DNA of 64,000 bases, from NCBI GenBank assembly GCA_963731765.1, contig CAVSWS010000041.1, positions 77,691 through 141,690 of the forward strand, written 5' to 3'. The notes under the pieces are model-generated. The model searched no databases. It had not been told where the DNA came from and saw only the letters and a program-made list of their open reading frames with translations. This document shows, in pieces, positions 2,244 to 48,101 of this stretch (position 1 is its first letter; every line of letters begins with the position of its first letter). The stretch comes from an uncultured Chloroflexia bacterium (GTDB lineage Bacteria; Chloroflexota; Dehalococcoidia; DSTF01; WHTK01). Made by a program: the position numbers and the translations under genes.

Positions 2244-2415
2244 CAGCGGGAAGCCTGCCTGCGCTCGAGCGTCGTCGATCTTCTGGGCTGCCTGCGAGCC
2301 GGGTTCCGGCGTCGGGCAGGCGTCTGCCTGGTCGACAGGCTGGCACGTCGTCGCCAGGTAGATGAAGACGATTACGGCGATGCCGGCGGCTATGTAGTGG
2401 CTGACGGGGCGGTTC

Positions 2416-3162
2416 TTAAACGCCCGCGTAGCTGTGCAACCCCGAAATCAGGAAGTTCACCGCGAAGTACGTGAACAGGACGGCCGCGTAACCCAGCAGT
2501 AGCAGGTACGCCGCCCGCTTGCCCTCCCAGCCTCGCAGGCCACGGGCATGCAGGTAGCCGGCATACACGAACCAGGTCAGCAGGGCCGAAGTCTCCTTGG
2601 GGTCCCAGCCCCAGTAGCGGCCCCAGGCTGAGTTGGCCCAGTATGCGCCGAGGGCGATGCCGAGCGTCAGCAGCGGGAAACCGACCAGCACGGACCAGTA
2701 GGCCACGTCTTCCAACGTCTCGGCGTCAGGCAGGCGGGCGAAGCGGTTGCCCGACTTGCCGGCCTGCAGCAGATACAGCACTGAGGCGCCGAAGGAAATG
2801 GAGAGCGCGCTGTACGCCATCGCCATCGTCGTGACGTGGATGCCGAGGATGCGATTCGACTGCAGGGCCGGCACCAGCGGCGAGATGCTCGAGGGGAAGA
2901 ACGCCAGCGCGATGCCCATGAGCACGACCGCGATGGGCAGCATCACGGTTGGGATAGCGCGTTCGTGGAAGCCGCGCTCGAACGCCGTCGTGAATAGCAC
3001 CATGCCCCAGCCGAGGGCGACCGTGTACTCCCACAGGTTGCCGATGGGCGGTCGCTCGACAGCGATGGTGCGGAAGACGATCGAGAGCGTTAGCAGGCCA
3101 AACGTGAGCCAGAGCAGCAATCGCGCGACCTTGTCGATGCCGGAGGGCATCGTAATCGACAC
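2416..3162 (-). CDS. ccsA: Cytochrome c-type biogenesis protein CcsA/ResC (heme-handling WWD family)
   Basis: 248 aa, about 8 TM segments, with the conserved tryptophan-rich 'WGRYWGWDPKE' WWD motif of CcsA/ResC/CcmC. Confidence 0.85.
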   Translation of the reverse strand: MSITMPSGIDKVARLLLWLTFGLLTLSIVFRTIAVERPPIGNLWEYTVALGWGMVLFTTAFERGFHERAIPTVMLPIAVVLMGIALAFFPSSISPLVPALQSNRILGIHVTTMAMAYSALSISFGASVLYLLQAGKSGNRFARLPDAETLEDVAYWSVLVGFPLLTLGIALGAYWANSAWGRYWGWDPKETSALLTWFVYAGYLHARGLRGWEGKRAAYLLLLGYAAVLFTYFAVNFLISGLHSYAGV

Positions 3163-3290
3163 GGGGAAGCTTACCGTCCCGGCCTCGGTCGCCGCCTGTC
3201 TATACGTCGTCCAGCCGCCGACAGCGCTCAGCAGGTAAGTGCTGGCTGCCAGACAGCAGACAATAAAACCACTGACGAACGTGTAGTAGG

Positions 3291-4172
3291 CTATGCCTTC
3301 GATTGTCCTGCTCCCACCGGAGCCCCTTGCGTCGCGGCAGCCATGCTTTCGGCCAGCTTACGAGCTTCCTCTTCCGCCTTCTGTGCCCGCTGCGACGTCC
3401 GCATGTGCACGCGCTTGAAGCTCTCGACCAGACCTCTGCCGCCGGGGCGCTTCCCTCGTTCACGCATCTGCTTGATCAGCTCGTCGCGATCGTGGGATTG
3501 CACCTGACTCCTATGAGCTAGGATAGCGTCTGCTTTCGTTTCAATGAAGTCGCTAACATCTACAAAGTAATTCGGATCAGGCGATCCAACTAACAAAATC
3601 TCATTCGCCCGCCACTCGCTCAGCCCCTGGTCGGCGTGTTGAGGGAAATAGAGGCGGTCCCGAACGGCCGGGAACAGCGCGTCTCGCACGGCGATGCCGG
3701 TATTGCGGTGGTCGTTGTGGTTGAAGCTGGGGCGGAACCCGTCCCACGTCAGCACCACGTCCGGCTTGTAGGTGCGGAACAGCCACACGAGGCGCTCTCG
3801 CAGCTCCGCGTTCGGCTCCACGAAGCCGTCCTCCAGCCCCAGGAAGAACACTTCTTTGACGCCGAGTACGCGTGCTGCCTCTCGCTGCTCTTCCTCGCGG
3901 ATCGCGGCGAGCTGCTGGCCGGAGATCCCCGGCTCGTGCGTGCCCTTGTCGCCCGAGGTTGTCAGCACGTAGTAGACCGTCCAGCCCTCGGCGCACCACT
4001 TTGCGATGCTGCCCGACGACCCGAAGTCGATGTCGTCCGGGTGGGCCATGATCGCCATCAGCGTCTTCGGCCCGTCATGCCCGATGGGCGGCAGCTTCGA
4101 GACGTCCTCGCCGTAATCGAAGGGGTTGGCGTCCTTCTTCCGTCGGGCCTTCAGTCTGGGCAGCATGAGCAT
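3291..4172 (-). CDS. PIG-L/LmbE family N-acetylglucosaminyl deacetylase (MshB/BshB-like)
   Basis: 293 aa. 'AHPDDIDFG' zinc-binding PIG-L signature, downstream conserved His/Asp. Sits downstream of a GT4 glycosyltransferase on the same strand. Confidence 0.8.
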   Translation of the reverse strand: MLMLPRLKARRKKDANPFDYGEDVSKLPPIGHDGPKTLMAIMAHPDDIDFGSSGSIAKWCAEGWTVYYVLTTSGDKGTHEPGISGQQLAAIREEEQREAARVLGVKEVFFLGLEDGFVEPNAELRERLVWLFRTYKPDVVLTWDGFRPSFNHNDHRNTGIAVRDALFPAVRDRLYFPQHADQGLSEWRANEILLVGSPDPNYFVDVSDFIETKADAILAHRSQVQSHDRDELIKQMRERGKRPGGRGLVESFKRVHMRTSQRAQKAEEEARKLAESMAAATQGAPVGAGQSKA

Positions 4173-4286
4173 CTTGTCGCCTCTTCTAGTTCAGCTATCG
4201 GCCCGATTGTACCCCGGCGTCACCGCAGCGCCAGGGAGAATGACCCGCCGGGGTGTGGGCACCTCGGCCACGATTGTGGAGGCCGG

Positions 4287-5519
4287 CTACGCCGAGGTTG
4301 TGAGCTCTCGGCTGGCCGCACCGCCGATGAGCGATTCATAGACATCGAGCACGGCGCCGGCGACGTTCTCCCAGCGATAGCGTGAGACGGCTTCGCGGGC
4401 CGCTTCGCCCAGGCTGATGCGTAGCGGTTCGTTGTCCAGCAGCAGCTCGATACGCTCTGCGAAAGGCTCAGGGCAGAGCCAGGGGATCAGGTAGCCGGTC
4501 TCGCCGTCCTTCACCGTGCCCGTCAGGCCACCGACGCGCGATGCCACCACAGGCACGCCGCTGGCCATCGCCTCGACGGCGACGAGGCCGAAGCTCTCGT
4601 AGTGAGACGGCACGACGCAGACGTCGGCGGCGTTGTAGTACAGCGGCAGCATGTCGTGGTCGACGGCGCCCGCGAAGGCGATGCGCTTGCCCACACCCAG
4701 CGCCTGGGCCAGGTCCTGGAGTTGCGCCACCTGCTGTGCCGAGGTCTCGTCGCCGCCCACGATAAGCACGCTGCAGTCGACGTCGCTGTCTAGCAAAGAC
4801 GCGGCACCGATGAGGATGTCGACGCCCTTGAGCGGTTCCAGACGGCCCACGAAGAGGATGATGCGCTCGTCCTGGCTGAGGCCGAGTCGCTCGCGGGCGT
4901 CTGCCTTGGCTGCGGGCCGGAAGCGGTCCATATCGACGCCGAGCGGGATGACCTGCACCTTGGCCAGGTCGCCGCCGTAGAGGGCTCGGATCGCGGTCCG
5001 CTCCTGCTCCGTGGCGCAGATGATGCGGTCGGCTCCCTGCAGCACGGCGCGCTCGGAGGCAATGCGCAGGGCTGTTTCGTGCTCCTGCACGCTGCTGCGG
5101 TTCTTGATCTCGCCCAGGGTGTGGAACATCGCCACGTGCGGGACGCCCCACGCAGCCTTGAGACGCTCGCCGACGAGGCCGGAGAGCCAGTAGTGGCTGT
5201 GGACGACGTCATACCCAGCGCCGGACGCCGCCGCAAAGGCCTTCACGCCGGACTCGAACGCTTCGAGGTGGTTGTAGATGTCTTCGGGCACCAGCGGCGC
5301 GACGGGACCTGCTTCGATGTGCACCGCGCGCAGACCCGGCTCGATCTCGACGATGGCCGGCACTTCGGGCTGCGTGGCCCGGCTGAAGATGTCGACCTCG
5401 CAGCCGCGCGCTACAAGCTGTCGGGCGAGCTGCAGCACGTACACGTTGAGTCCCCCGGCCTTGGCCCCGCCGGGACGTGCCAGAGGCGACGTGTGAACGC
5501 TGAGTACTGCGATGCGCAT
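4287..5519 (-). CDS. GT4-family glycosyltransferase, MshA-like (D-inositol-3-phosphate glycosyltransferase-like)
   Basis: The track ORF 4287..5762 is over-extended. An internal Met 'MRIAVLSVHTSP...GGLNVYV' at aa 82 gives a 410 aa protein with MshA-type N-terminal motifs and a GT4 C-terminal domain 'ESFGLVAVEAMASGVPVVA'. Starting at 5519 leaves a 13-bp gap to the upstream CDS instead of an out-of-frame overlap. Confidence 0.8.
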   Translation of the reverse strand: MRIAVLSVHTSPLARPGGAKAGGLNVYVLQLARQLVARGCEVDIFSRATQPEVPAIVEIEPGLRAVHIEAGPVAPLVPEDIYNHLEAFESGVKAFAAASGAGYDVVHSHYWLSGLVGERLKAAWGVPHVAMFHTLGEIKNRSSVQEHETALRIASERAVLQGADRIICATEQERTAIRALYGGDLAKVQVIPLGVDMDRFRPAAKADARERLGLSQDERIILFVGRLEPLKGVDILIGAASLLDSDVDCSVLIVGGDETSAQQVAQLQDLAQALGVGKRIAFAGAVDHDMLPLYYNAADVCVVPSHYESFGLVAVEAMASGVPVVASRVGGLTGTVKDGETGYLIPWLCPEPFAERIELLLDNEPLRISLGEAAREAVSRYRWENVAGAVLDVYESLIGGAASRELTTSA

Positions 5520-5532
5520 GGATACAGGTTCT

Positions 5533-6561
5533 CTATGCAGACCGGGCGACCCGGATGCGATAGATCTCCTGGTTCCTGGCGCCCATGTCGTACTTGTAGG
5601 GCTCGTCGCCGCGCAGGAAGTCGAGACCGGTCTTGCCGTTTTCGATTGCCCATTGCAGGCAAAGCGCCTTCGAAACGAGGCCGACAGACAGCGAAGAAAA
5701 CGCCGGATCGTAGCCGGAGTTGTACAGATACAGGTAGCTGCCGGCGTCGAAACAGAGCACACACGCGGCAGGCTTCTTGTTGACTCGCAGCATGAACAGG
5801 CGCACGAGGTCCTCCGCAGCCATGGCGGAAGCCATGCGGCGGAAGAACGTCTCCATCTCGGGCGTCATGAACTCGGTCTTGTCGGCGCGGCTGCTGCGGT
5901 GCAGCTCGAGGAACTCGTCCATCGCCCCGACGACCTCCTCCTGCGTGCTCAGCACGTCGAAGGAGACGCCGGCGCCGCTCTCGTAGAGCTTGCGGATCTT
6001 GCGCCGCAGCTCGTGGCGGTCTTTCTTGCCCAGCGTGGCGAGGTAGCCTTCCCACGAGTCGGGCAGGGGGAGCCGGGGCGCTACTGCCTCGAGCTCCTCG
6101 GTGACCTCGAAGCCCTTGTCCGCCGCGAACGCCTTGATGCGCTCCCGTGTCGGCGAAGAGGCCATGAGACCCCAGAAGTCGAGCTCGCTCCATTCGTGGT
6201 CGCATAGCTGCTTCCACAGGTCTTCGTACGCCGCGTCTGCGTTGTCCGGGTCGACCAGTACGTCCATGAAGTCGCAGATCTGGGGGTCGCCGATGAAGCT
6301 GAGCTGGTTGTCGTTGCGCATGAGCGGGGCGATGCCCAGGACGCCGCCTTCGCCGCACGACAGCATCAGCGGCTCATAGTTGCCGCCGAACTCGGAGAAC
6401 CAGGTGCGCAGCCACGCCGGGTGAAGGAAGGGCAGTCGTTCGGGCTGGCGGGCGAGCAGTGCCTCCAGCGCCGGGTCGAGGTCTACGAAGGTTCCTTGTG
6501 CCGTTTCCTGCAAGCCAAGCCTCAATTCAGTGGTTGGCGTGACCCGCGAGCCCGCCCTCAT
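5533..6561 (-). CDS. Acetyltransf_6 (CelD/BioF2-like, FemAB-fold GNAT) acyl/aminoacyl transferase
   Basis: 342 aa. C-terminal 'GYDPAFSSLSVGLV...GKTGLDFLRGDEPYKYDMG' matches the CelD/BioF2-like GNAT (PF13480) signature. First gene of a three-gene minus-strand cluster. Confidence 0.7.
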   Translation of the reverse strand: MRAGSRVTPTTELRLGLQETAQGTFVDLDPALEALLARQPERLPFLHPAWLRTWFSEFGGNYEPLMLSCGEGGVLGIAPLMRNDNQLSFIGDPQICDFMDVLVDPDNADAAYEDLWKQLCDHEWSELDFWGLMASSPTRERIKAFAADKGFEVTEELEAVAPRLPLPDSWEGYLATLGKKDRHELRRKIRKLYESGAGVSFDVLSTQEEVVGAMDEFLELHRSSRADKTEFMTPEMETFFRRMASAMAAEDLVRLFMLRVNKKPAACVLCFDAGSYLYLYNSGYDPAFSSLSVGLVSKALCLQWAIENGKTGLDFLRGDEPYKYDMGARNQEIYRIRVARSA

Positions 6562-6687
6562 ACGCTGTAAATCTTACTGTTAGGTTCGTAGGGGGTCAAC
6601 GAAGGGAAGTCTGCACCCTGCTCCGGTGACTCTCATGGCCGTTGCAAGGGACGCACACCCCTTCTTGCACAAGCATAGAATGTCGGC

Positions 6688-8343
6688 ATGACTCCGGGAT
6701 CCATTCTGGAGGAAGCGCGCGAGGCCTTTGCCCGACAGTCGTGGTCTGCCGCTCGGAGCGCGTTCGCCGCGGCTGCGCAGGAGGCGCCGCTCTCGCTTGA
6801 CGACACGGAGCGCTACGCGGAGGCGGCGCACCTGATCGGCGAAGAGGCCGAATGTCACGAAGCGCTGGCCGCCGGCTATCGGGCAGCATTGTCCCGCCAG
6901 GATGTGACGCGAGCGGCCCGGTTCGCTTTCTGGCTTGGCCACAACATGATCTTCACGGGGGAGGAGGGCCGGTCCGCGGGCTGGTTTGCCCGGGCAAAGA
7001 ACGTGCTCGCGGACCGAGGCTCAGACTGCGTGGAATGGGGCTATCTCCTGGTCCCACCCGGCATGCGCCAGCTCATGGAGGGCGATGCGGTTGCGGCACG
7101 CATCCCCCTGACCGAGGCGATGGCGATCGCGCGGCGCTACGCCGATGCCAACCTCCTCGTCCTGGCCGCCCATGCCCTGGGTCGCACGCTGATCCGGCTG
7201 GGTGAGCCCGACGAAGGCATGGCGCTGCTCGACGAGGCGATGGTGGCGATTTCGGAGGGCGAGGTGACGCCACTGCTGGTGGGACACGTCTACTGCGGTG
7301 TCCTCGAGGCGTGCCAGGAGGTGTACGACATGCACCGGGCGCGGGAATGGACGGCCCTGCTTTCGAGATGGTGCGAGGGGCAGCCTGACCTGGTGCCTTA
7401 CCGCGGCCCTTGCCTCGTCCATCGAGTCGAGATGATGCGACTGCGCGGCGATTGGGAGGACGCGCTTGAGGAAGCCCGCCGTGCCTGTGAGTGGCTCTCG
7501 CTTCCCAACAGCCCTGAGACACCGTCCGACGCCTACTACGAGCTCGCCGAGCTGCACCGCCTTCGCGGCAACTATACGAGCGCGGAGGAAGCTTACCGGC
7601 AGGCGAGCCGTCTGGGCCGGTCGCCGGAGCCGGGCATCGCCCTGCTCTGGCTGGCGTCCGGGCAGGCCGAAGCGGCCGAGTCCGCCGTCCGCCGGGCGCT
7701 GTATGAGCCAAACGAGTATCAGGTGCGTCGCCCCGAACTGCTGGCCGCCTACGTGGAAATTCTTCTCGCCAGAGACGACGTTGCCGGGGCTCGGCACGCC
7801 GCCGATGAGCTCATGCAAATCGCGAGCGCCACGGACAACCTGCCGCTAAAGGCGCTGGCAGAGCGGGCGGCGGGAAGCGTCCTTCTCGCGGAGGGCGAGC
7901 CAGGCCCTGCGCTGGGACCGCTGCGGCGCTCCTGGGTGATCTGGCGGGAGCTGGACGCGTCCTATGATGCGGCGTGCGTGCGCGCTCTGATCGCGGCAGC
8001 CTGTCGCGCTCTCGGTGACGAGGAGTCGGCCCAGATGGAGATCGATGCGGCGCGCTGGATATTCGAGCGGCTGGGCGCGGCGCCGGCGCTTGCCCGCCTC
8101 GACGGGATTGTCGGTGGGGTGTCTGGAAGTTCGGCAGGCCTTACCCAGCGCGAGCTGGAGGTCCTGAGCCTGATCGTCGCGGGCGAAACGAACAAGGGCA
8201 TCGCGGCATCACTTGTCATAAGCGATCATACTGTCGCGCGACACGTGCAGAACATGCTGCAGAAGCTCGGCCTGCCGTCTCGGACCAGCCTCGCCGCTTA
8301 CGCTCTGGAGCACGGCCTCCTACGTTCTACTGGTTCAAAGTAA
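6688..8343 (+). CDS. LuxR-family transcriptional regulator with large N-terminal helical (TPR-like) domain
   Basis: 551 aa. C-terminal GerE/LuxR HTH 'LTQRELEVLSLIVAGETNKGIAASLVISDHTVARHVQNMLQKLGL'. Divergently oriented from the acyltransferase/GT4/deacetylase operon, 126-bp intergenic. Confidence 0.75.
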   Translation: MTPGSILEEAREAFARQSWSAARSAFAAAAQEAPLSLDDTERYAEAAHLIGEEAECHEALAAGYRAALSRQDVTRAARFAFWLGHNMIFTGEEGRSAGWFARAKNVLADRGSDCVEWGYLLVPPGMRQLMEGDAVAARIPLTEAMAIARRYADANLLVLAAHALGRTLIRLGEPDEGMALLDEAMVAISEGEVTPLLVGHVYCGVLEACQEVYDMHRAREWTALLSRWCEGQPDLVPYRGPCLVHRVEMMRLRGDWEDALEEARRACEWLSLPNSPETPSDAYYELAELHRLRGNYTSAEEAYRQASRLGRSPEPGIALLWLASGQAEAAESAVRRALYEPNEYQVRRPELLAAYVEILLARDDVAGARHAADELMQIASATDNLPLKALAERAAGSVLLAEGEPGPALGPLRRSWVIWRELDASYDAACVRALIAAACRALGDEESAQMEIDAARWIFERLGAAPALARLDGIVGGVSGSSAGLTQRELEVLSLIVAGETNKGIAASLVISDHTVARHVQNMLQKLGLPSRTSLAAYALEHGLLRSTGSK

Positions 8344-8463
8344 CCACTCAGCGTCTGGCTGCAAGTTGGTTCATCGGTACGATGGCGCGTCTTTCCGGTC
8401 GCCGTAGCGTCTCCGTCAGAGAGGAAACGGTTCCTCATACGACAGCCAACGAAGGAGACGGAC

Positions 8464-9627
8464 ATGATCGCGACAAGAGTGGAAGACCTGGTGGAGCCGG
8501 TAGCAGGCGACATTCGGCGGATGGCAGCGCAGGCGGAGGCCGAGCGTCGTATGCCCGACGAGCTGCTGCAGAGCCTGATGGAGGCCGGACTGTTTTCGAT
8601 CTACACGCCGAAGCAGTTTGGCGGCCTCGATTTGCCGCTGCCGGAGGCGCTTCGAGTTGTCGAGGAGGTCTCGCGGCACGATGGCTCCACGGGCTGGACG
8701 GTCGCGCTGGGCGTCGTGAACAGCCTGTTCACGTCTGTGCTGCCGGACGAGAGCGCACGGCGCGTGCTGGGCAACGGGTCAGTGCTGATCTGCGGCTCGC
8801 CGGCTATGAGTGTGCAGGCTGTGCCCGTCGAGGGCGGCTACCGCCTGTCGGGTCGGTGGGGATTCAACAGCGGCGCGCCGAACGCCAGCTGGGTCGCCAT
8901 ACCGGCGCCGATCTTCGAAGGTGGTGCGCCTCGCATGGGCGAGGGCGGCCCGGAGCTGGTGTTTTGCTTCTTCCCGCGTTCCGAGGCGCAGATCATCGAC
9001 ACCTGGCATGTCACCGGCTTGCGCGCGAGCGGCACCCAGGACCTGTGCGTCGACAACCTCTTTGTGCCGGAGGAGATGACAGGCGGCTTCTCGATGCCTG
9101 CCGGCCCGCAACCGGTGCGTGATTGCGCGTTTACAAACGTGCCGCTGTTCACGCTGTTCGCCGTGATCCAGTCGCCGGCAGTCTGCCTCGGCCTCGCGCG
9201 CCGCATGATCGAAGAGTATCGAGACCTGGCGGTGTCGAAGCAGAGCACATTCGGCTCGAAATTAAGCGAGCAGAGCCTGGCGCAGGTCGGTATAGCACGG
9301 GCGGAGGCGCTGGTTAGCTCCGCGCGCACGTGGTGGTACGACCGCGTGGAGGGCTTGTGGGACGCCGCGGTGGAGGGCCGGACGCTCTCGCTGGAGGAAC
9401 GGGCGAGCATTCGCGTCGCTTCGCTGCTCGCCGTCGACAACTGTCTTGACGCCGCGGATATGCTGTATCGCCTCGGCGGGTCCAGCACCATCTTCCAGTC
9501 CTCGCCGCTAGAGCGCTGCTGGCGCGACATCCACACCGCCGCGCAGCACATGCAGTCGCAGCCGGTACGGTGGGAGACGGCGGGCAGAGTGATGCTGGGG
9601 CTGGAACCCGACAGCCCGATTCTGTAG
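8464..9627 (+). CDS. Acyl-CoA dehydrogenase-family flavoprotein (possibly group-D flavin monooxygenase-like)
   Basis: 387 aa. Acyl-CoA dehydrogenase N/M/C domain organisation is recognisable. Confidence 0.65.
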   Translation: MIATRVEDLVEPVAGDIRRMAAQAEAERRMPDELLQSLMEAGLFSIYTPKQFGGLDLPLPEALRVVEEVSRHDGSTGWTVALGVVNSLFTSVLPDESARRVLGNGSVLICGSPAMSVQAVPVEGGYRLSGRWGFNSGAPNASWVAIPAPIFEGGAPRMGEGGPELVFCFFPRSEAQIIDTWHVTGLRASGTQDLCVDNLFVPEEMTGGFSMPAGPQPVRDCAFTNVPLFTLFAVIQSPAVCLGLARRMIEEYRDLAVSKQSTFGSKLSEQSLAQVGIARAEALVSSARTWWYDRVEGLWDAAVEGRTLSLEERASIRVASLLAVDNCLDAADMLYRLGGSSTIFQSSPLERCWRDIHTAAQHMQSQPVRWETAGRVMLGLEPDSPIL

Positions 9628-9665: not shown

Positions 9666-10751
9666 TCAGGCGATGCCGAGGGCGTCTTCGATGACCTGCA
9701 GGTCCGGTGGCACGCTCAGTTCATGGAACGGGAAGGCCTTGCCGGCGGTGTCCGGGTCCTTCAGGCCCATGCCCGTGATGATGCAGACGCAGGTCAGGTT
9801 CTTCAGGTCGGTGTGCTCGGACACTTTGATCAGGCCCGCCACGCTGGCGGCCGAAGCGGGCTCGCAGAACAGGCCCTCTTCCGAGGCCATGCGCTGGTAG
9901 GCGGCGATGATCTCGTCGTCAGTCACGCTATCGATGGCGCCCTCGGACTCGTCGCGGGCGGCGGTGGCCAGCTTCCAGCTCGCCGGGTTGCCGATGCGGA
10001 TGGCCGACGCGATGGTCTGGGGGTCCTCGACGATCTCGTTGCGCACGATCGGTGCAGCGCCGGCGGCTTCGAACCCCATCATCTTCGGCAGGCGAGTCGA
10101 GAGCTTCTGCTGCTCGTACTCCTTGAACCCCGCCCAGTAGGCCGTGATGTTGCCGGCGTTGCCGACGGGCACGAACAGACGGTCCGGCGCTTCGCCCAGG
10201 TCATCGACGATCTCGAAGGCGGCCGTCTTCTGGCCCTGGATGCGGTACTGGTTCACGGAGTTCACGAGCGAGATGGGGTGGCGGTCCGTGTACGCGCGGG
10301 CGAGACGGAGGGCATCGTCGAAGTTGCCGTCAATGGCGACGACCTGCGCTCCGTAGGCGATGCTCTGGGCCAGCTTGCCCATGGCGGTACGTCCCTTGGG
10401 CAGGAAGACGTAAGCCTTGAGCTCGCAGTGCGCCGCGTAGGCTGCGGCTGAAGCGCTGGTGTTGCCGGTGGAGGCGCAGAGGACGGCCTTCGAGCCTTCC
10501 TCGATCGCCTTGGCGACAGCCATGACCATGCCCCGGTCCTTGAACGAGCCGGTGGGGTTGCAGCTCTCCAGCTTGAAGTACAGCTCGCCAATCCCCAGCG
10601 AGGGGCCGATGCGCGTGGACTTCACCAGCGGCGTGCTACCTTCGCCCAGGTCGACGATGGGAGTCGCCGAGGTCAGAGGCAGAAAGTCCGCATAGCGCGA
10701 CAGGACGCCGCGGCGCTGGTTACTCCGGTTCGACGTTGAAGGTACGGGCAC
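9666..10751 (-). CDS. thrC: Threonine synthase
   Basis: 361 aa. PLP-binding 'FKDRGM' lysine motif with 'TGSFKDRG'. N-terminal 'RYADFLPL'. Full-length similarity to ThrC. Confidence 0.9.
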
Positions 10752-11730
10752 GGAGGTCCTTAATCTCTTTCTCTAGGGCGCCCATCTCCCGCTTGCGGAA
10801 GTCGGCACTCAAATCGCGAAGTCCGTTCAGGTACGCGCCTAGCTGCTCTCGTTCGATCTGCAGATTCTCGCGCAGCTTGCGCAGGTCGTCTTGATAGCCT
10901 GTGATGCGCGCTTCGATCAGCGACGATCGCTCGTCATGGCCGTTGAGCCTGCCGTCGATCGTGTTGATGGTGGAGACGATGGCGTTGATCTGCTCGTTGT
11001 GGCGAGTGCGTTCGGCCTGCACCAGCTCCAGGCGGTCGTCGATGCGAGTGATCTTGTTCGTCTCGACGCGGATGACGGCAATCTCGGCTTCCAGGCGGCG
11101 GAGCATCTCGGCGTTACTGGCGACGCGCTCCTCGTGGGTGACGTCGATGTTCTGAAGCGCCATCACGGCGCCGGCGAAGCGTGTGAGCTCCTGGTCGATG
11201 CGGCTAAGGGTGGAAATCGTGCGCGCCTGGTCGGTCTCGTTCTCTGCGACGGCGTTTTCCAGCACCTCGACCCGCATCATGATCTGCGAGATCTGGTCCA
11301 GGTTGCGGCGGCTGTACTCTTCCGTCTTCTGGATGCGCTCCGGCAGGACTTCGATCGCTCGTTCGATGTCGGTGAAGCGACGGCCGTAGGCGTTCTTGTC
11401 CTGACGCACCACCTCGGCTTCTTCCTGGACGCGGCGTTCGAACTCCTCACGCGCGTGACGCAGGTTGTTGATGTCGTCCTGGCTGCGGGCGACGAGGTCT
11501 CGCAGGGAGCGCAGGTCGTCCTGGACGTGCATGAGCGCGGTGCCCATGCCATCGAACTGGGAAAGGGCGGTGTGGACCTGGTGCGACGTTTCGGACGCGT
11601 CTGAGGCGACGTTACGGCTCTGGTCTGCAGCCTGCGCGACGACCGCGAGACGGCTCTTGATCTCCGAGAGCTCGGAGTGCACCCAGGCCAGGGCGTCGCC
11701 GTTCAGTGGTATTTCGCGTCGTGTCGTCAC
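10720..11730 (-). CDS. Coiled-coil protein of unknown function
   Basis: 336 aa, almost entirely heptad-repeat, charged and Leu/Ile-rich, with no enzymatic motifs. Its start overlaps the hom stop by 4 bp and its end overlaps the thrC start. Confidence 0.5.
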
Positions 11731-23198: not shown

Positions 23199-25718
23199 TC
23201 ATCCTTTCACGACGATGTTCACCAACCGGCGCGGCACGAACAGCACCCGCGCGATCTCCTTGCCGGCGACCTGCTTCTCCACGTTGGCGCTCGACATCGC
23301 CAGCTCTTTCGCGGCGTCCTCGGTGATGTCGACGGGCACGTCGAACTTGTCGCGCACTTTGCCGTTGACCTGGATGACCAGCGTGAACGTCTCGGCCTTC
23401 GCCAGCTCCGGGTTTGCTTCCGGCCAGGACTGCTGGTGCACGCTGTACGCGTGACCGGTGCGCTCCCACAGCTCCTCGGCGATGTGCGGCGCGGCCGGCG
23501 CCATCATCAGCAGCAGCGATTCGACCGCCTGGTCCCAGGCCGTGCGACCGACGTTGTCTGCCTCGCGCACCTTGCCCAGGTAGGTCGTGAACTCCATCAG
23601 GCGCGCCAGCATGGTGTTGAACCGGAAGTTGTCGAGGTCCTCCGTGACGATGCTGATCGTGCGATGGCGCTGTCGCTCCAGCTCGCGCACGGCGGCTTCG
23701 TCGACGTTGCTGCCGGAGGGCGGCTCCTGCGCGACGCTCCATACGCGGTTCAGCCATCGCGACAGGCCCTCGATGCCTTCCGGCCGGTAGGGACCGCCGT
23801 CCGACCACGGGCCGATGAACATCAGGTAGCAGCGGAAGGTGTCGGCGCCGTATGAATAGACATAATCGTCGGGGTTGACGACGTTGCCGCGTGACTTCGA
23901 CATCTTCTCGCCGTCGGGGCCCAGGATGATGCCCTGGTTGTACAGGCTCACTGCCGGCTCGTCGAAGTTCAGCAGGCCCAGGTCCCGCATCGCCTTCGTG
24001 AAGAAGCGGAAGTACATCAGGTGCATCGTCGCGTGCTCGATGCCGCCGGTGTACTGCGTGACGGGCAGCCATTGCTTGACCGCCTCATTCGTGAAGTCGA
24101 AGGGCGCCTCGTCGAAGTGCGGGCTCAGGTAGCGATACTGGTACCAGGACGAGTCCACGAAGGTGTCCATGGTGTCGGTCTCGCGCACGGCGTCGCCGCC
24201 GCAGACCGGGCAGGTCGTCTTCCAGAACCGCTCGTCGCGCTTCAGGGGCGATTCGCCGGTCGGCACGAACTCGGAGTCCTCCGGCAGCAGGACGGGCAGG
24301 TCCTCTTCCGGCACCGGCACAGCGCCGTCGGTCGGGCAGTAGATGATCGGGATCGGCGTGCCCCAGTAGCGTTGACGGCTCACCAGCCAGTCGCGCAGGC
24401 GGTACGTAATCGTCGACTCCGCGAAGCCGCGCTCGGCACCATAGGCCACGACGCTCTTCTTGCCCTCTTCGTTCGCGGTGCCGTCGAAGGGGCCGGAGTT
24501 CACCATCGTTCCGGGCTCGACATAAGCCTCCGTCAGCGCTGTTTGGTCTGGGCTGCTATCCGGCGGTGCGATCACCACCTTGATGTCGATGCCGTACTTC
24601 GTCGCGAACTCGAAGTCACGCTGGTCGTGCGCCGGGACGCCCATGACGGCGCCGGTTCCGTAGCCCGCCAGCACGTAGTCGCCGACGTAAATCGGCACCT
24701 GCTCGCCGTTGTACGGGTTGGTGCAGTAGGCGCCCGTGAACACGCCGGTCTTCGCCTTGTCCGCCGCGGTGCGCTCGATCTCAGTCTGGCGCTTCGCCGC
24801 CTCGACGTACGCATCGACGTCGGCCTTGCGCTCGGGCGTCGTCAGCGACTCGACCAGCGGGTGCTCCGGCGCCAGGACCATGAACGTGACGCCGTAGATC
24901 GTGTCGGGCCGCGTCGTGAACACCGTAATGCTGGAGTCGACCCCTCCCCCCGGCCCCCTCCCCGTTGACGGGGAGGGGGAGACGGAGAAGGTGATGTTGG
25001 CGCCCTCGGAGCGGCCGATCCAGTTCGTCTGCATGGTCTTGACGCGCTCGGGCCAGTCCAGCCCGTCGAACTTCAGCAGCTCTTCGGCGTAGTCGGTGAT
25101 CTTGAAGTACCACTGCTCCAGGTTGCGCTTCTCGACGGGTGTGCCGCAGCGCTCACACACGCGCTCATCGCCGTGCACCTGCTCCCGGGCCAGCGTGGTG
25201 TTGCAGTGCGGGCACCAGTCGACGGCGCCCATCTTGCGATAGGCCAGCCCGCGATTGAAGAACTGCAGGAAGAACCACTGGTTCCACTTGTAGTACTCCG
25301 GCAGGCACGTGATCACCTCGCGCGACCAGTCGAACATCGTGCCCATGCGTTTGGCCTGCTGGCGCATGCGGTCGATGTTGGCCATCGTCCACTTGTACGG
25401 GTGGATGTTGTTGCGGATCGCGGCGTTCTCCGCCGGCAACCCGAAGGCATCGAAGCCGTAGGGGAACAGGACGTTGTGCCCCTTCATGCGCATGTAGCGC
25501 GCCTTCGTGTCGGGCGGCGTTTCCGCGTACCAGTGACCGATGTGGAGGTCGCCGGACGGGTAGGGGTACATGGTGAGGAAGAAGTACTTCGGCCGCGGGT
25601 CGTCGTTGCGGGCCTCGTACAGCCCGTCCCGCTCCCAGCGAGCCTGCCACTTCTCCTCGATCGCCGGTGGGTCGTACCGGTCGATGCGTCCTTCGGTCGT
25701 GTTCTGCGTCTGCGTCAT
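23199..25718 (-). CDS. leuS: Leucine--tRNA ligase
   Basis: Start taken at 'MTQTQNT', aa 11 of the track ORF. 'HIGH'-type 'PYPSGDLHIGHW' and 'KMSKS' motifs. Full-length LeuS including the editing domain. Confidence 0.95.
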   Translation of the reverse strand: MTQTQNTTEGRIDRYDPPAIEEKWQARWERDGLYEARNDDPRPKYFFLTMYPYPSGDLHIGHWYAETPPDTKARYMRMKGHNVLFPYGFDAFGLPAENAAIRNNIHPYKWTMANIDRMRQQAKRMGTMFDWSREVITCLPEYYKWNQWFFLQFFNRGLAYRKMGAVDWCPHCNTTLAREQVHGDERVCERCGTPVEKRNLEQWYFKITDYAEELLKFDGLDWPERVKTMQTNWIGRSEGANITFSVSPSPSTGRGPGGGVDSSITVFTTRPDTIYGVTFMVLAPEHPLVESLTTPERKADVDAYVEAAKRQTEIERTAADKAKTGVFTGAYCTNPYNGEQVPIYVGDYVLAGYGTGAVMGVPAHDQRDFEFATKYGIDIKVVIAPPDSSPDQTALTEAYVEPGTMVNSGPFDGTANEEGKKSVVAYGAERGFAESTITYRLRDWLVSRQRYWGTPIPIIYCPTDGAVPVPEEDLPVLLPEDSEFVPTGESPLKRDERFWKTTCPVCGGDAVRETDTMDTFVDSSWYQYRYLSPHFDEAPFDFTNEAVKQWLPVTQYTGGIEHATMHLMYFRFFTKAMRDLGLLNFDEPAVSLYNQGIILGPDGEKMSKSRGNVVNPDDYVYSYGADTFRCYLMFIGPWSDGGPYRPEGIEGLSRWLNRVWSVAQEPPSGSNVDEAAVRELERQRHRTISIVTEDLDNFRFNTMLARLMEFTTYLGKVREADNVGRTAWDQAVESLLLMMAPAAPHIAEELWERTGHAYSVHQQSWPEANPELAKAETFTLVIQVNGKVRDKFDVPVDITEDAAKELAMSSANVEKQVAGKEIARVLFVPRRLVNIVVKG
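24954..24979. repeat. GC-rich perfect hairpin (CCCCCTCCCC-gttgac-GGGGAGGGGG) embedded in-frame in leuS
   Basis: 10-bp inverted repeat with 6-nt loop read directly from the sequence, with an extra CCCCTCCCC copy just upstream. Encodes part of a lineage-specific 'SPSPSTGRGPGGGVDSS' insert. Confidence 0.6.
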
Positions 25719-25833
25719 GTTGAATCTGATTCTACCAATAAGCCCCAAACCGGGCGACAGAGATCATCTTCGCACGGCCTGTACCGGGCGCGGGCCTTGC
25801 TGCTGACGGATGACTGGGGTGCCGCGAAATAAT

Positions 25834-34050: not shown

Positions 34051-36870
34051 ATGATGACTACCGCGCTTCGCGGTGCGGGTACCCAAGGCAGGGAGGCCTC
34101 CATGTCCCAGGATCAAGATCAGCCTGAGCAGAGCAAGCAGTCATTGCGCCGGCGGCTTCTTTCCCGCATGGGTATGAAGGGCCTCGGCAGCGAGAGCGGC
34201 CTTGTACGTGCCTTTTCCGTTTCCGGCCTCCTGGTTGTCTTTGCGATTGTCGTCGTCGCAGGCACCTTCGCATGGCGCAGCGTGGCAGTCGGTGCCCCTA
34301 GCACCAGCGGCACATTAAACTGCCCGCTACCTGCATATAATCCGACTCACTATGCCCTGCAGGTTGGGACCTCCGTAACCTGCACGATCACAGGTGCCGA
34401 AGACGTTTCCGGTCAATCGACCGTCGATGTAATCATCAAGAGCTCGCAGTTCGGTAACCAGACGGTCACCGGGACGGTCACTGGCACCGGCTCGGCGACT
34501 ACCATCACGTTCACGTTCACGGCGCCAGCCAATGGCTGCGACACCACGGTCGTTGCCTACAGCACAAACGGCAACAACGTCAGCGGTGACTATCAGGGAT
34601 TCGGCTACGTCGATGCGGGCGGTAATCACATCAGCTGTACAGGCGGACCATCACCAACCAGCACGCCGACGAATACACCTGAGCCGACCCAGACGCCAAC
34701 AGCGACTGCCACCAGTACTGCTACAGCAACGGCAACGCCGGTTGACACTGCTACTCCCACGCCGACGAGTACGGCCACAGCTATCGCCACGTCTACAGCA
34801 ACTGCCACAAGCACGGCGACCGCAACGCCCACACCGAATGACACCGCCACTGCTACGCCAACGGCGACAAGCACGGCTTCTCCCACACCGACCGCCACAA
34901 GCACTGCGACGGCGACACCGACCGCTACAGGTACGGCTACGCCCACTCCGACTGTGACCAGTACTGCGACACCGACCCCGACGGCAACGAGTACGGCCAC
35001 GGCCACTGCAACGGCGACCGCAACTGCTACGGATACGCCCACGGACACTCCTACACCCACCGAGACCCCGACAAGTACACCGACGCCGTCCACTCCGACG
35101 ATCGTGACGTCGCCGAGCTCACAGACCATCAATCTCGGTGGCGACCCCTCGAGCGTGACCGACCACATCACCGTGACGGTTAACAGCGAGGGGATCGCGG
35201 GCACCGTGGACGTCTACGTCTGCCAGGACGATAACGCCAACCCGGACTGCACCACGGGTGGCACGCAGACCGGCAACGACATCGCGCTCGACGGTAACGG
35301 CGAAGCGGACTCCGATCCGTTTACTCCGACGGTCGAAGGCTTCTACTGCTTCCGGGTCGAATTCGCGCCGACCGACACGGCGGCCTACAGCCCGGCCCAG
35401 CACACGAACATCCCGGTTGAGTGCTTCCAGGTGACGGCACCCGACACGGACATCGCCAAGACGGCCGACGCTGACACCGTCAACGTTGGTGGCGACCTCT
35501 CCTACACGATTACCGTGACCAACAATGGCAGCGGCCCGACTAACGACACCCTGACGGTCGTCGATACGCTGCCCGACGGCCTCACCAACATTTCGGTTAC
35601 CGAGAATGGCTGGAACTGTAACGACGAGTCGATCACGGAGCCGACTTCCGGCGCAACGATGACCTGTACCTACGACGGCGTCGTCAACGCCGGTGCCTCG
35701 GCGCCGAGCATCGTGGTCGACGTGACGGTGCCCGACGACAGCTGTGACAACCTCACCAACCAGGCCGTCGTCAGCGGCGCTGATGCCGGCAACGACACGG
35801 CCGATAACACCGCTTCAGTTACGACGAACGTCGATGGCTGTGCAAGCGACCTGGATATCACGAAGTCGGGCGATACGACCGCCCTGTTCGGCGATACCGT
35901 CCAGTACCTCATCCAGGTCACCAACTCCGGCAACAACCAGGCTGATGACGTGGTGGTCACGGACAACCTCGACAACAGTCTGAACGGCGTCACGGCCCTC
36001 TGGGACACGGACAGCAACCCGGCCGTTGGTGGTACCGCCTGTACGGTGGGCGCCGGCAACGACGTGAGCTGTAGCGTCGGTAGCCTGGGTATCGGCGAAT
36101 CGGCCTGGGTTCTTGTGACCGGCACCGTCGACTCCTGCGATGACCTGACGAACCAGGCCGTCGTGAACTGGAACGACGGCACCACCGGCACGCCCGACTC
36201 GAACACGAGCAACATCGTGACGACGACGGTAACCTGTGGCGCCATCACCATCGTCAAGGACACTGATCCCGAGACGACGGGCATCAACTTCAGCTTCGGC
36301 AGTTCGTTCGGCGGCTTCGTGCTGCAGGACGACCAGTCGATCAACTTCAACGACCTTGAATCGGCGACCTACACGTTCACCGAGACGAACATCCCGGCGG
36401 GTTGGGACCTCACGGACATCAGCTGCACCAACGACGGCATCAACGCCGGCGTGCTGGATGACGTCAACCTGGGCAACGAGACGGTGGAGATCACCCTTCG
36501 CGCCGGTGACGACATAACGTGTGTCTTCAACAACGTCGAAGAGCCGCCGGTGGTCATCGTGGAGGAGACGGCAACGCCAACGCCCACGGCGACCTCGACA
36601 CCGGTAGCCCAGGTCGGTGGCATCATCACCACGCCGACGCCGACCCTCGTTTCGGAAATCGGTGGGGTCCGGACGACGCCCACGCCCACCCTGGTTAGCG
36701 AGATCGAGAGCGTCCGCAGCCTGCCGCAGACCGGTAACGGTGGCCCCATGGCAGATGCGACGCACGGCGGCGCTTCCTTCCCGTGGGCCCCAGTGGCGGT
36801 CGCCTCAGTGCTCGCTGCTATCGGCCTGGCGTTTGGCTTCGGTCGCCGCCGTCGAGGCGACGCAAGCTAG
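34051..36870 (+). CDS. Cell-wall-anchored surface protein: DUF11 repeats, SpaA/prealbumin-like domain, PT-rich linker, C-terminal LPQTG sorting signal
   Basis: 939 aa. N-terminal TM/signal. DUF11 motifs '[31 protein letters not shown]' and '[26 protein letters not shown]'. '[15 protein letters not shown]...[11 protein letters not shown]' prealbumin-like domain. C-terminus 'LPQTGNGG...[23 protein letters not shown]' is a sortase signal. Exact start uncertain. Confidence 0.7.
34660..35100 (+). repeat. Pro/Thr/Ala-rich low-complexity tandem repeat array inside the surface-protein CDS
   Basis: About 140 aa of (T-A-T/P-T-P) repeats encoded by degenerate ACN/GCN/CCN tandem DNA repeats. The antisense frame gives the spurious 'VGVAV' ORF at 34626..35204. 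Confidence 0.6.
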
Positions 36871-36968
36871 AGTGATCCGGCCGGGGCGAGAGTAATCCCG
36901 CTCCGGCCGTAACCAACCCCGCCATCTCGCGTTGATGAGGGCGGGGGCACTTTGAAACGCTACTGGGA

Positions 36969-37835
36969 TTGGCCTGCGGAAGGTGCTGTCACGTGACGCG
37001 CGCGATCGTCTTCATCACTCTGGTTGCTGGTGTGGGTGTCCTGATCGCCATGGCCATCCTGCGCCGGTCTTCCGGCCATCAACCCTCTCCCGCCGAGGTC
37101 GAATCGATGACTCCACCCGCACCCGAAATGTCACCGCCACCCCCGCCGAGCGAAGAGCCCGTTGCGGGCCGCCTGCGTTATCTGCTCCTGCTCATCCCCG
37201 CCTCGCTGCTCGTCGCGGCGCTGATCATCCTCACCGCAGGCTCCGGCAGTAATGACGGCGGCACGAGTGCAGTGAGCACGAACGCGTCGCCCACGGCGAC
37301 TGCTCGCGCGAGCGTCGCCGGAGGTAGTTCCGCCGTGGCCGCCGACGCGACTGCTACGGCCATGCCGCACCCCGTCGACGTCGCCCGCGTCGTGGTACCC
37401 AGCCTCGACATCAATGCGCCCATCATCACCCTCGGCGTCGACGCCACCGGCACGATGGAGGCGCCCGGCAACCCGACGGACGTCGCCTGGTACAACTTCT
37501 CGGCCCGCCCGGGGGAGATCGGCAACGTCGTGCTCGCGGGCCACCTCGACTACATCAACTACGGTCCGGCGGTGTTCTACCACCTGAAGGACGCCAAGGC
37601 AGGGGACGAGGTCGATCTCGTCCTCGTCGATGGCACCACGGCTCGCTACCGCATCCAGAACGTCACAACCTACGACGATGCCACCGCGCCCGTGCAGGAG
37701 ATCGTTGGTCCCACAGATAAGGAAGTCGTGACGCTGATTACCTGCGGCGGCTCCTTCGACCAGCTCTCGCGTGAGTACGACAAGCGCGTGGTACTCCGCG
37801 CTGAACGCGTCGCGGATACAGCTGTCGCGCCTTAG
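36969..37835 (+). CDS. Sortase family transpeptidase (class E/F-like)
   Basis: 288 aa. N-terminal TM segments. Catalytic His 'VVLAGHLDY', Cys 'VTLITCGG' and Arg context. Immediately downstream of the LPQTG protein. Confidence 0.8.
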   Translation: MACGRCCHVTRAIVFITLVAGVGVLIAMAILRRSSGHQPSPAEVESMTPPAPEMSPPPPPSEEPVAGRLRYLLLLIPASLLVAALIILTAGSGSNDGGTSAVSTNASPTATARASVAGGSSAVAADATATAMPHPVDVARVVVPSLDINAPIITLGVDATGTMEAPGNPTDVAWYNFSARPGEIGNVVLAGHLDYINYGPAVFYHLKDAKAGDEVDLVLVDGTTARYRIQNVTTYDDATAPVQEIVGPTDKEVVTLITCGGSFDQLSREYDKRVVLRAERVADTAVAP

Positions 37836-44769: not shown

Positions 44770-44778
44770 GCTTCGAGC

Positions 44779-45291
44779 TTACGGCAGCACTGTGCTCGTC
44801 AGCGGGTTCGCGAAGAGCAAGATGAGCGCAATGATCAGGGCGTACAACGCCAGGGATTCCAGCAGCGCCAGGCTGATGAAGAGCGTGGTTGAAATGGCGT
44901 CACGTGCGCCGGGCTGCTCCGCGATCGATTGCATCGCCGCCGCAGCAACGCGCCCCTGACCCACGGCCGCCAGCATCGTGCCCAGCGTGATCGTCAGGCC
45001 TGCCACGATGGCCGAGCCCGTGACGAACCAGAACTGCGCCTTGCCCGCCTCGGCGGCCCGTGCCGCATCACTCTCCAGCGGGTTCGCAAATAGCAACACC
45101 AGCGCCACGATCAGCACGTACAGCGCCAACGACTCCACCATTGCGAGCGATACGAAGAGGTTGCGGCTGATCGTCCCGGCCTCGTCCGGCTGGCGGGCGA
45201 TAGCCTGCACGGCGGAGCGAGCCGCCATCGCCTGGCCGACCGAGGGCAAGATCACCCCGGCGCCGATCGAGACGCCGGCCGTGGCGATCAC
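44779..45291 (-). CDS. atpE: ATP synthase c subunit, tandem-duplicated and fused (double hairpin, 4 TM), both ion-binding Glu retained
   Basis: One uninterrupted frame encodes two c hairpins: '...[70 protein letters not shown]' and '[77 protein letters not shown]'. The DNA shows diverged direct repeats, both beginning 'CAGCGGGTTCGC.A.A..AGCAA'. Proposed GTG start at aa 104 of track ORF 44779..45600, which is otherwise over-extended into atpB. A CTG/ATT start about 10 codons upstream is an alternative. Confidence 0.6.
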
Positions 45292-45317
45292 CGCGACATG
45301 GAACCAGCTTTCGGAAA

Positions 45318-46228: not shown

Positions 46229-48101
<1,873 letters not shown>

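Follow-up and report, generated by a model that had tools for sequence, protein, structure and literature searches.

What does an operon make that begins like the mycothiol pathway and carries no cysteine ligase? Mycothiol synthesis relies for its amide bond on MshC, a CysRS paralogue. The question is raised by a 64-kb stretch of DNA (64,000 nucleotides, hereafter the window) from a Dehalococcoidia (Chloroflexota) MAG, in which an operon on the minus strand (6561-3291) encodes, in this order, an Acetyltransf_6 protein (AT6), an MshA-like GT4 glycosyltransferase and a PIG-L deacetylase. We lean modestly towards the view that this operon makes a mycothiol-like GlcN conjugate, with AT6 forming the amide bond, probably from an aminoacyl-tRNA; the acceptor, the amino acid and the donor are all deduced. 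The conjugate would most likely be a low-molecular-weight thiol, and a Fem-type transferase seems to replace the usual cysteine ligase. No description of a pathway or operon of this kind was found in the searchable literature. If the interpretation is correct, it adds an undescribed route by which bacteria that are very abundant but little studied make a small protective thiol.

Results

The four open reading frames that a first-pass annotation had placed at this locus are all present, and the spacings that it gave, 13 bp between AT6 and GT4 and 126 bp between AT6 and a LuxR-type gene, are correct; GT4 and PIG-L are 114 bp apart. On the 5′ side of AT6 stand promoter-like hexamers (TTGACC-17-TAAGAT, 6571..6599, minus strand), a match to the consensus only and the sole sigma-70-like one within 2300-7000, where 0.5 would be expected by chance. 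The operon is flanked by housekeeping genes (thrC, hom, ccsB, tauE, rpsF-ssb-rpsR, greA and lysS), and neither the window nor related loci contain a polymerase, a flippase, a polyprenyl-phosphate transferase or a second glycosyltransferase. With such neighbours, and no other glycan genes nearby, an exopolysaccharide or cellulose locus was rejected.

Conservation of the neighbourhood was followed across 80 related species-level loci, the GT4 count being restricted to the 76 with room for the gene and the PIG-L count being taken over 73. In 75 of the 76, GT4 is the next gene after AT6, with a median gap of 17 bp and 4-bp overlaps being common, and in 48 of the 73 PIG-L is encoded downstream in the same orientation. 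The arrangement is far beyond chance, the AT6-GT4 pair being repeated in 75/76 species-level loci. AT6, GT4 and PIG-L are conserved together as a unit, outside any EPS locus. Clusters within the Dehalococcoidia keep their housekeeping synteny at AT6 identities of 36-99%; as the neighbourhood is largely syntenic overall in this class, the adjacency of AT6, GT4 and PIG-L within it is partly inherited, and it is the clusters in other phyla that carry the weight of the argument. A Desulfobacterales genome (Desulfobacterota) has the core in the form AT6 > GT4 > inverted MshD-like gene > PIG-L. In Poribacteria a protein of the TIGR03084/TIGR03083 mycothiol-dependent-enzyme family is encoded between AT6 and the MshD-like gene, and in Lindowbacteria an MDMPI_N protein takes the same place.

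AT6 (5533..6561, minus strand) matches Pfam Acetyltransf_6 (PF13480) with an E-value of 7e-35 and 120.7 bits (cut-off 22), and falls just short of the cut-off for FemAB_like (PF04339; 26.5 bits vs 27). Its true start is probably the TTG at 6516, which would yield 327 amino acids, because homologues are 325-329 amino acids long and span 92-95% of the query, residues 1-21 of the predicted model have a pLDDT below 50, and a GAGG is located 6 nt 5′ of this TTG. No solved Fem or MprF protein matches AT6 at the sequence level. The predicted structure (pLDDT 90.7) has the dual-GNAT architecture of the Fem/MprF aminoacyl-tRNA transferases, in agreement with the Fem-type fold assigned on first reading, and its top structural neighbours (FemX, FemA, MprF and Sbb17/Sba18) are all aminoacyl-tRNA-dependent, a direction towards which solved dual-GNATs are biased; Sbb17/Sba18 among them were solved with an amino-sugar substrate, and acetyl-CoA tandem GNATs score far below these enzymes against the AT6 model. 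Invariant in sequences down to 36% identity are Y322-K323, near the C-terminus, and a basic helix with R182, R187, K188 and R190. A tRNA-binding basic helix and a catalytic Lys following an aromatic residue near the C-terminus are described in PMC12945691; the AT6 helix may parallel the former, and its Tyr-Lys pair is a putative counterpart of FemX_Wv Lys305 and DhpH-C Phe328/Lys329. The donor is probably an aminoacyl-tRNA, the fold alone being no proof of tRNA use.

The mechanical open reading frame 4287-5762 is too long for the GT4, as homology to MshA starts at the ATG at 5519 (gene 4287..5519, minus strand). The protein matches Glycos_transf_1 (E 1.4e-44) and Glyco_transf_4 (E 4.6e-31) over its full length. 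By far its best NCBIfam model is MshA (TIGR03449), with 403 bits over the full length, followed by a family at 148 bits, whilst EPS-type GT4 models give at most 126; its nearest curated family is therefore MshA, and the designation 'MshA-like' in the first-pass annotation is sound. Even so, 403 bits are below the equivalog cut-off of 462.5, with C. glutamicum MshA scoring 718 and TeSPS, a proven sucrose-phosphate synthase, 288 on the same model. In the PDB the best match is C. glutamicum MshA (283 bits, 38.8% identity), with TeSPS nearly as similar (269 bits, 37.8%). For both reasons, the score below the MshA cut-off and the closeness of TeSPS, homology does not fix the acceptor.

Vetting et al. 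2008 are said to have named Lys78, Tyr110, Thr134 and Arg154 as the acceptor-phosphate ligands of C. glutamicum MshA. The residues matching Y110, T134 and R154, as well as H133 and E316, are invariant across 70 GT4 orthologues; the K78 position falls in a variable loop and is Lys in 48 of the 70 and Pro in the window protein. Arg105 and Arg178 of TeSPS, stated in PMC7264703, would be the equivalents of MshA Lys78 and Arg154. As TeSPS has the same phosphate ligands, these indicate a phosphorylated acceptor and not inositol specifically; inositol phosphate is the leading candidate. We propose that this retaining GT4 transfers GlcNAc from UDP-GlcNAc to such an acceptor.

The third gene (3291..4172, minus strand) encodes a metal-dependent de-N-acetylase of the PIG-L/LmbE family (PF02585, E 3.8e-31), with AHPDD and HNDH motifs, for which exposure of the GlcN amine is proposed. 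Its best NCBIfam match is BshB1, at about 96 (95.7) bits vs a cut-off of 182.5; it also fails BshB2 (84 bits, cut-off 195) and MshB (TIGR03445; 33 bits, cut-off 224), and so is not MshB-like. Its best PDB matches are LnmX and archaeal diacetylchitobiose deacetylases.

That the cluster has no ligase, as had been remarked from the window, extends to its relatives: the window and all 80 related loci lack a CysRS/MshC-like catalytic domain, the sole class-I synthetase among the 80 being a TyrRS (L032), and in the further loci from Desulfobacterota, Poribacteria and Lindowbacteria no CysRS-type catalytic domain lies beside the MshA-, MshB- and MshD-like genes. The window likewise shows no BshC-like gene. 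At these loci, where an MshC-like ligase is absent, the only additional enzyme that is always there is AT6.

The thiol-like reading proposed at the outset gains from what the relatives carry. An MshD-like tandem GNAT is encoded inside the cluster in 35 of the 80 related loci; among NCBIfam models it scores best on MshD (102 bits, cut-off 163), and the top PDB match is M. tuberculosis MshD, over the full length (58.7 bits). To this can be added phosphatases of three unrelated families (PHP, PAP2 and HAD) that adjoin PIG-L, lineage by lineage, a glyoxalase-II-like MBL hydrolase in 10 loci, the mycothiol-dependent-enzyme-family protein mentioned above and, in one locus (L037), a partial pyridine-nucleotide-disulfide-oxidoreductase-like gene after PIG-L, with a score under the family cut-off. 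In the window itself, tblastn with the MshD-like proteins of related loci finds no such gene, and ino1 and phosphatase genes are not found there either; a MIPS-like (inositol-1-phosphate synthase) motif is found neither in the window nor in the 80 related loci.

Discussion

The pathway would run as follows. Judging from homology, GT4 would take GlcNAc from UDP-GlcNAc and attach it to a phosphorylated acceptor, our best guess being a cyclitol phosphate such as inositol-1-phosphate, and the phosphate would then be removed by a phosphatase encoded elsewhere in the genome. PIG-L, by its family, would remove the N-acetyl group, and AT6, the new element, would form an amide on the freed amine, as its fold, conserved residues and gene context suggest; the donor would probably be an aminoacyl-tRNA, with Cys-tRNA as the leading candidate. 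In relatives only, the cluster-encoded MshD-like GNAT would finally N-acetylate the amino acid.

Could AT6 use acyl-CoA instead, with GlcNAc transfer and deacetylation unchanged, so that the product is an N-acyl-GlcN compatible solute, signalling molecule or glycolipid head group and no thiol at all? Its Pfam family is Acetyltransf_6 and its only NCBIfam match (33 bits) is BspF, described in that library as a crotonyl transferase. We hold this explanation to be unlikely. It is also conceivable that a canonical MshC encoded elsewhere makes mycothiol or a relative of it, leaving AT6 to add a further amino acid or to modify another substrate. The msh genes of Actinobacteria are scattered over the genome, so the lack of the gene in a 15-kb neighbourhood is weak evidence of absence. 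No gene, however, is coupled to GT4 as tightly as AT6 (often translationally), and CysRS-type domains are missing from the 80 loci and from the additional loci in other phyla alike, which makes a distant MshC quite improbable as the explanation.

An envelope role, with the operon decorating a polymer or lipid either in CelD/BcsL-type EPS fashion or by MprF-style aminoacylation of a GPI-like GlcN-phosphatidylinositol, draws on the JGI family name ('CelD/BcsL ... cellulose biosynthesis'), on PIG-L being named for GlcNAc-PI deacetylase, on the MprF domains among the structural neighbours of AT6 and on the DUF502 membrane proteins that follow GT4 in 26 loci. Against it stand the housekeeping context without glycan genes, the low scores of EPS-type models and the position of GT4 nearest to enzymes for soluble sugar or cyclitol phosphates, with phosphate ligands kept; we give it very little credence.

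With mycothiol (MshA, MshA2, MshB, MshC and MshD of Actinobacteria) the operon shares its start, a GT4 nearest to MshA with sugar-phosphate ligands and then a PIG-L-family deacetylase, and its relatives share the MshD-like tandem GNAT, the adjoining phosphatases and, in two phyla, mycothiol-dependent-enzyme-family proteins that adjoin AT6. It differs in that no MshC stands at the loci, where the constant partner is a Fem/MprF-fold Acetyltransf_6 enzyme, in that GT4, deacetylase and GNAT are all under the MshA, MshB and MshD equivalog cut-offs, and in that the genes are clustered, not scattered, and hosted by Chloroflexota, Desulfobacterota, Poribacteria and Lindowbacteria. Bacillithiol synthesis (BshA, BshB and BshC) has the same order of GT4, PIG-L deacetylase and cysteine transfer onto the GlcN amine, and BshB1 is the best curated model for the window PIG-L. 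Yet that model's cut-off is missed, a BshC-like gene is lacking in the window, and GT4 scores 114 bits on BshA (cut-off 273.7) against 403 on MshA; its phosphate-binding residues also argue against a malate acceptor as in bacillithiol.

For the proposed amide-forming step the parallel is Orf11/Sbb17/Sba18, which depend on Gly-tRNA to aminoacylate streptothrisamine, an amino sugar intermediate of BD-12 and streptothricin-type antibiotics. Sequence identity to AT6 is about 15%, acceptor and amino acid differ, and those enzymes belong to Streptomyces secondary metabolism whereas the AT6 operon sits in a core-genome context. FemX, FemA, FemB, MurM and MprF belong to Pfam families other than PF13480; AT6 has neither the FemA coiled-coil insertion nor a membrane domain, and the genes that accompany it suggest a soluble GlcN conjugate, not peptidoglycan or lipid. 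CelD/BcsL-type proteins do share PF13480 with AT6, and JGI gives their name to its homologues, but AT6 lies outside any polysaccharide locus and has an MshA-like GT4 and PIG-L as constant partners.

The first-pass annotation is thus supported as to the three-gene unit, the MshA-like GT4 and the Fem/MprF architecture, and its thiol-like reading gains evidence; it is not supported in counting the divergent LuxR regulator as part of the system. This gene (6688-8343, plus strand; TPR and GerE domains) and the adjoining HsaA-like monooxygenase gene (8464-9627) recur only in a 99%-identical contig (L001); L002, L003 and L004 lack both at this position. The LuxR-type gene is a lineage-specific insertion, together with the monooxygenase gene, and lies outside the system.

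Results

The operon lies at 6561-3291 on the reverse strand and comprises an Acetyltransf_6 protein of 342 aa (AT6; 5533-6561; PF13480 at E 7e-35, with FemAB_like marginally below its cut-off), a GT4 glycosyltransferase of 410 aa (4287-5519) and a PIG-L deacetylase of 293 aa (3291-4172). They are separated by 13 bp and 114 bp, and the G+C of the window is about 65%. The first-pass annotation was correct in its gene content, coordinates and gaps, as all its ORFs and domain matches were recovered in place. AT6 itself probably starts at TTG 6516, which would shorten it to 327 aa, judging from the lengths of its homologues, the disordered N-terminus of its model, a GAGG placed 6 nt before this TTG and promoter-like hexamers (TTGACC-17-TAAGAT at 6599-6571) upstream of the gene. 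No Rfam element, riboswitch or other RNA, was found between 3000 and 7000. The AT6 protein has no exact match but a 99%-identical one (P0001); an ENA contig of 373 kb is likewise 99% identical to the window, and the names borne by the closest AT6 homologues are those of Dehalococcoidia MAGs.

The remaining genes of the window are housekeeping ones (thrC, hom, ccsB, tauE, leuS, ilvC, ATP synthase, polA and a sigma factor), along with a sortase and pilin genes, and the window holds no further glycan genes and no ino1, mshC, mshD or bshC. The thrC-like PALP gene was considered as a cysteine synthase and ruled out, being a threonine synthase. Membership of a defence system, prompted by a Pfam ‘GT4-conflict’ match, was rejected as well, the three enzymes having no PADLOC match.

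The LuxR-type gene (TPR and GerE domains; 6688-8343, forward strand), which begins 126 bp upstream of AT6 on the opposite strand, had been proposed as regulator of the operon, a role that its distribution contradicts. Together with a gene for an HsaA-like flavin-dependent monooxygenase it makes up an insertion of two genes that separates thrC from AT6 (6688-9627) and is seen only in the lineage of the window. Relatives with 64-73% AT6 identity carry the three enzymes at the equivalent site, thrC to ccsB, with both inserted genes missing; the site is empty in the close relatives L002 and L003 and occupied by a GGDEF-EAL gene in a third, L004. The LuxR gene is therefore a lineage-specific neighbour outside the system, and its product more plausibly serves the monooxygenase.

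The three enzymes, by contrast with this neighbour, are conserved as a unit. Scanning one genome per GTDB species for AT6 gave 80 loci with 36-50% AT6 identity, nearly all in Dehalococcoidia (including SAR202), with a few in Desulfobacterota and one in Poribacteria. In 75 of the 76 loci with room for it, GT4 is the next gene 3′ of AT6 and co-directional with it (median gap 17 bp, with many 4-bp overlaps), and a co-directional PIG-L gene is found downstream in 48/73, so that the conservation of neighbourhood on which the first-pass annotation had staked its reading is borne out, and outside polysaccharide loci. When the flanking ORFs of the 80 loci were clustered and representatives scanned with profiles, a tandem-GNAT protein of about 315 aa appeared between GT4 and PIG-L in 35 of them. 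Among NCBIfam models it matches mycothiol synthase MshD best (102 bits; cut-off 163), and among solved proteins M. tuberculosis MshD (58.7 bits, a full-length match); many of these MshD-like proteins bear the JGI annotation ‘mycothiol synthase’. A phosphatase follows PIG-L in some loci (PHP/CpsB in 10, PAP2 in six, HAD in two), and a glyoxalase-II-like protein of the metallo-beta-lactamase (MBL) fold occurs in 10. A catalytic domain of the CysRS/MshC type was found in none of the 80 loci. One locus, L032, has a protein with HLGH and KMSKS motifs adjoining AT6, the sole class-I synthetase found; being an ordinary TyrRS that occurs once, it is treated as a coincidence.

Since synteny within Dehalococcoidia is partly inherited, cases outside the class carry most weight. 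Four Desulfobacterota loci (L037, L074, L084 and L086) have AT6, GT4 and PIG-L in that order with MBL and HAD genes alongside, and a Desulfobacterales chromosome (L089) reproduces the Dehalococcoidia core of AT6, GT4, an inverted MshD-like gene and PIG-L. In L037 a partial gene after PIG-L resembles pyridine-nucleotide-disulfide oxidoreductase, with a score below the family cut-off. After AT6 in the Poribacteria locus L068 comes a protein that passes the TIGR03084 cut-off (339 bits; cut-off 248) and includes the TIGR03083 ‘mycothiol-dependent enzyme’ domain, with an MshD-like gene next in line; the Lindowbacteria locus L090 has AT6, an MDMPI_N protein and an MshD-like gene. Thus AT6 is associated with MshA-, MshB- and MshD-like genes and thiol-type enzymes across four phyla.

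Both of the last two loci (L068:7031-9833 and L090:896-3902) place AT6, an MDMPI_N/DinB protein and the MshD-like tandem GNAT 3′ of a biotin carboxylase, and GT4 and PIG-L are absent within 7 kb of them. The Desulfobacterota have peculiarities of their own. One is a protein of about 417 aa in which a cyanophycinase/peptidase-S51-like domain is fused to some 100 C-terminal residues homologous to the helical-bundle and anticodon-binding domain of CysRS (PF23493). In four genomes (L074:5061-6314, L084:2910-4163, L086:9001-10269 and L089:15228-16517) this S51-CysS_C fusion is the first gene of an operon with ThuA-GFO, GFO, AT6, GT4 and PIG-L genes, to which L089 adds the MshD-like one; in that genome the fusion gene and its successor share 4 bp. 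A link of the fusion protein to tRNA(Cys) is possible. As a constant partner of the cluster it qualifies only in part, lying within it in these four and away from it in two further loci (L087 and L088), and its family is large, with at least 8,000 candidates, all below E 1e-5. Oxidoreductases of the GFO/IDH/MocA type also precede the Desulfobacterota cluster (L037:1051-2157, L084:4226-6956, L086:10478-13187 and L089:12570-15231), one gene in L037 and two in the other three, where the first is fused to a ThuA-like domain. The best NCBIfam matches of the L037 protein, xylose dehydrogenase and inositol 2-dehydrogenase, are both below cut-off. These neighbours suggest that a sugar or cyclitol moiety is modified in Desulfobacterota.

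Among curated models the window GT4 is by far closest to MshA (TIGR03449), at 403 bits with the next at 148, but this falls below the equivalog cut-off of 462.5, and sucrose-phosphate synthase is nearly as similar: in the PDB the window protein scores 283 bits with C. glutamicum MshA and 269 with Thermosynechococcus Tll1590 (TeSPS), with pairwise identities of 38.8% and 37.8%. A true MshA reaches 718 bits on the MshA model, compared with 318-378 for the other cluster GT4s and 288 for sucrose-phosphate synthase. The MshA residues used for comparison reportedly come from Vetting and colleagues (2008). The equivalents of MshA Tyr110, Thr134, Arg154, His133 and Glu316 are invariant in 70 GT4 orthologues, and Thr134, Ser317 and His109 are among several positions that match MshA and not TeSPS; that of Lys78 is Lys in 48 of the 70 and Pro in the window. 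This ligand list was cross-checked against the TeSPS residues of PMC7264703, in which Arg105 and Arg178 are the phosphate ligands. We conclude from these residues and scores that the window GT4 probably belongs to an MshA/TeSPS-like group using phosphorylated acceptors. Inositol phosphate is a plausible acceptor, the phosphatases adjoining the cluster in other lineages would fit a phosphorylated intermediate, and the donor would be GlcNAc, given the co-operonic deacetylase. The deacetylase carries the PIG-L metal-binding motifs and is neither a BshB1 equivalog (96 against 182.5) nor an MshB one (33); among solved proteins it comes closest to LnmX and to archaeal diacetylchitobiose deacetylases.

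For AT6, which belongs to a family of 503 representative clusters (E below 1e-30), only fold comparison was informative, as sequence and profile searches of the PDB gave no meaningful match. A confident AlphaFold2 model built from 69 homologues (pLDDT 90.7, pTM 0.86) has as its top 27 Foldseek matches members of the Fem/MprF class of aminoacyl-tRNA-dependent transferases (TM 0.49-0.66), whereas the tandem GNATs that use acetyl-CoA (clavulanate ORF14, VipF and MshD) reach only 0.35-0.46. According to a 2026 review (PMC12945691), members of the class hold their acceptor site between two GNAT domains and bind tRNA through a positively charged helix, with one Lys as the single catalytic residue (Lys305 in FemX_Wv; Lys329, after Phe328, in DhpH-C); one of them, Orf11, moves Gly from tRNA onto an amino sugar. 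Invariant in AT6 are Tyr322-Lys323, about 20 residues before the C-terminus, Asp97, and a basic helix at the start of domain 2 (K180, R182, R186, R187, K188 and R190), all of which would be equivalent to the Fem residues. For AT6, tRNA dependence is likely rather than certain, because this equivalence is itself deduced and because BspF, described in NCBIfam as a crotonyl transferase, is also in Acetyltransf_6.

Discussion

The gene content and conservation of the cluster are direct observations, from which we infer each chemical step of a pathway that would resemble those of mycothiol and bacillithiol. GT4 would form a GlcNAc-X-phosphate, a phosphatase would take off the phosphate, PIG-L would free the amine, and AT6 would join to it, by an amide, an amino acid from aminoacyl-tRNA, which would then be N-acetylated wherever an MshD-like enzyme is present. 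Cys is the best guess for this amino acid because of the neighbours that are MshD-like, of the mycothiol-dependent family, glyoxalase-II-like or disulfide-oxidoreductase-like. In the lineage of the window itself, the MshD-like and phosphatase genes do not adjoin the cluster. On the whole, we lean slightly towards such a mycothiol-like mechanism. That AT6 is a Fem-fold transferase dependent on Cys-tRNA(Cys), which displaced the ATP-dependent MshC, with the co-operonic CysRS-anticodon-domain protein of Desulfobacterota perhaps aiding delivery of tRNA(Cys), is a more tentative proposal, which we hold to be somewhat improbable as it stands.

The operon is not a member of either known pathway, since the proteins of the cluster score below the MshA, MshB, MshD, BshA and BshB equivalog levels and no neighbourhood contains the defining ligases. 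Nor is AT6 an ordinary member of the CelD/BcsL polysaccharide proteins, though it shares their annotation; the closest mechanistic precedent for its step is Orf11/Sbb17. In the searchable full-text literature the cluster is undescribed, Dehalococcoidia, SAR202 and Chloroflexota are unlinked to mycothiol biosynthesis, and no Fem-type enzyme was found in a thiol pathway; in one SAR202 paper a ‘mycothiol maleylpyruvate isomerase’ annotation appears as a list entry only. To our knowledge, and after a full-text search that found nothing, no particular low-molecular-weight thiol has been assigned as the redox buffer of Chloroflexota, among them SAR202 and the Dehalococcoidia that respire organohalides. 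The cluster is a concrete, testable candidate for such a thiol pathway in at least 80 species. If correct, this interpretation would account for the ‘mycothiol-dependent’ families and ‘mycothiol synthase’ annotations outside Actinobacteria, and would mend the misleading ‘CelD/BcsL cellulose’ label carried by thousands of proteins. Should AT6 prove to be a ligase that depends on tRNA, a redox cofactor of primary metabolism would for the first time be seen to be made with aminoacyl-tRNA, and the replacement of MshC would be a clear non-orthologous displacement.

Other features of the window

SpaA-type pilin genes and a class-C-like sortase at 34051-37835 (L085:90-5185 in the public contig) form a covalent pilus locus of Gram-positive type in a Dehalococcoidia genome, with a LysM-M23 peptidase gene and an HTH-PASTA gene nearby. 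A family III CoA-transferase at 56922-58432 (reverse strand) appears to be split into two overlapping ORFs of 255 and 253 aa that match different parts of the Pfam model, perhaps through a frameshift or because the gene is a pseudogene. The leuS (23199-25748) and HsaA-like (8464-9627) genes are each called in two pieces in the 99%-identical public contig (L085:13563-16084 and L001:6935-8099), which suggests frameshift errors of that assembly and not biology, since both are intact in the window. A conserved 336-aa protein (10720-11730; also in the public contig L001 and in L002 and L004), with faint coiled-coil-type Pfam matches only, is encoded by a gene that overlaps, in every close relative, with the ends of both hom and thrC. 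The ATP synthase genes at 42479-48095 are in an unusual order: alpha is followed by a b/delta-like fusion and subunit a, and then, some 2.6 kb away from alpha, comes a second subunit of the alpha/beta family, which is beta-like.
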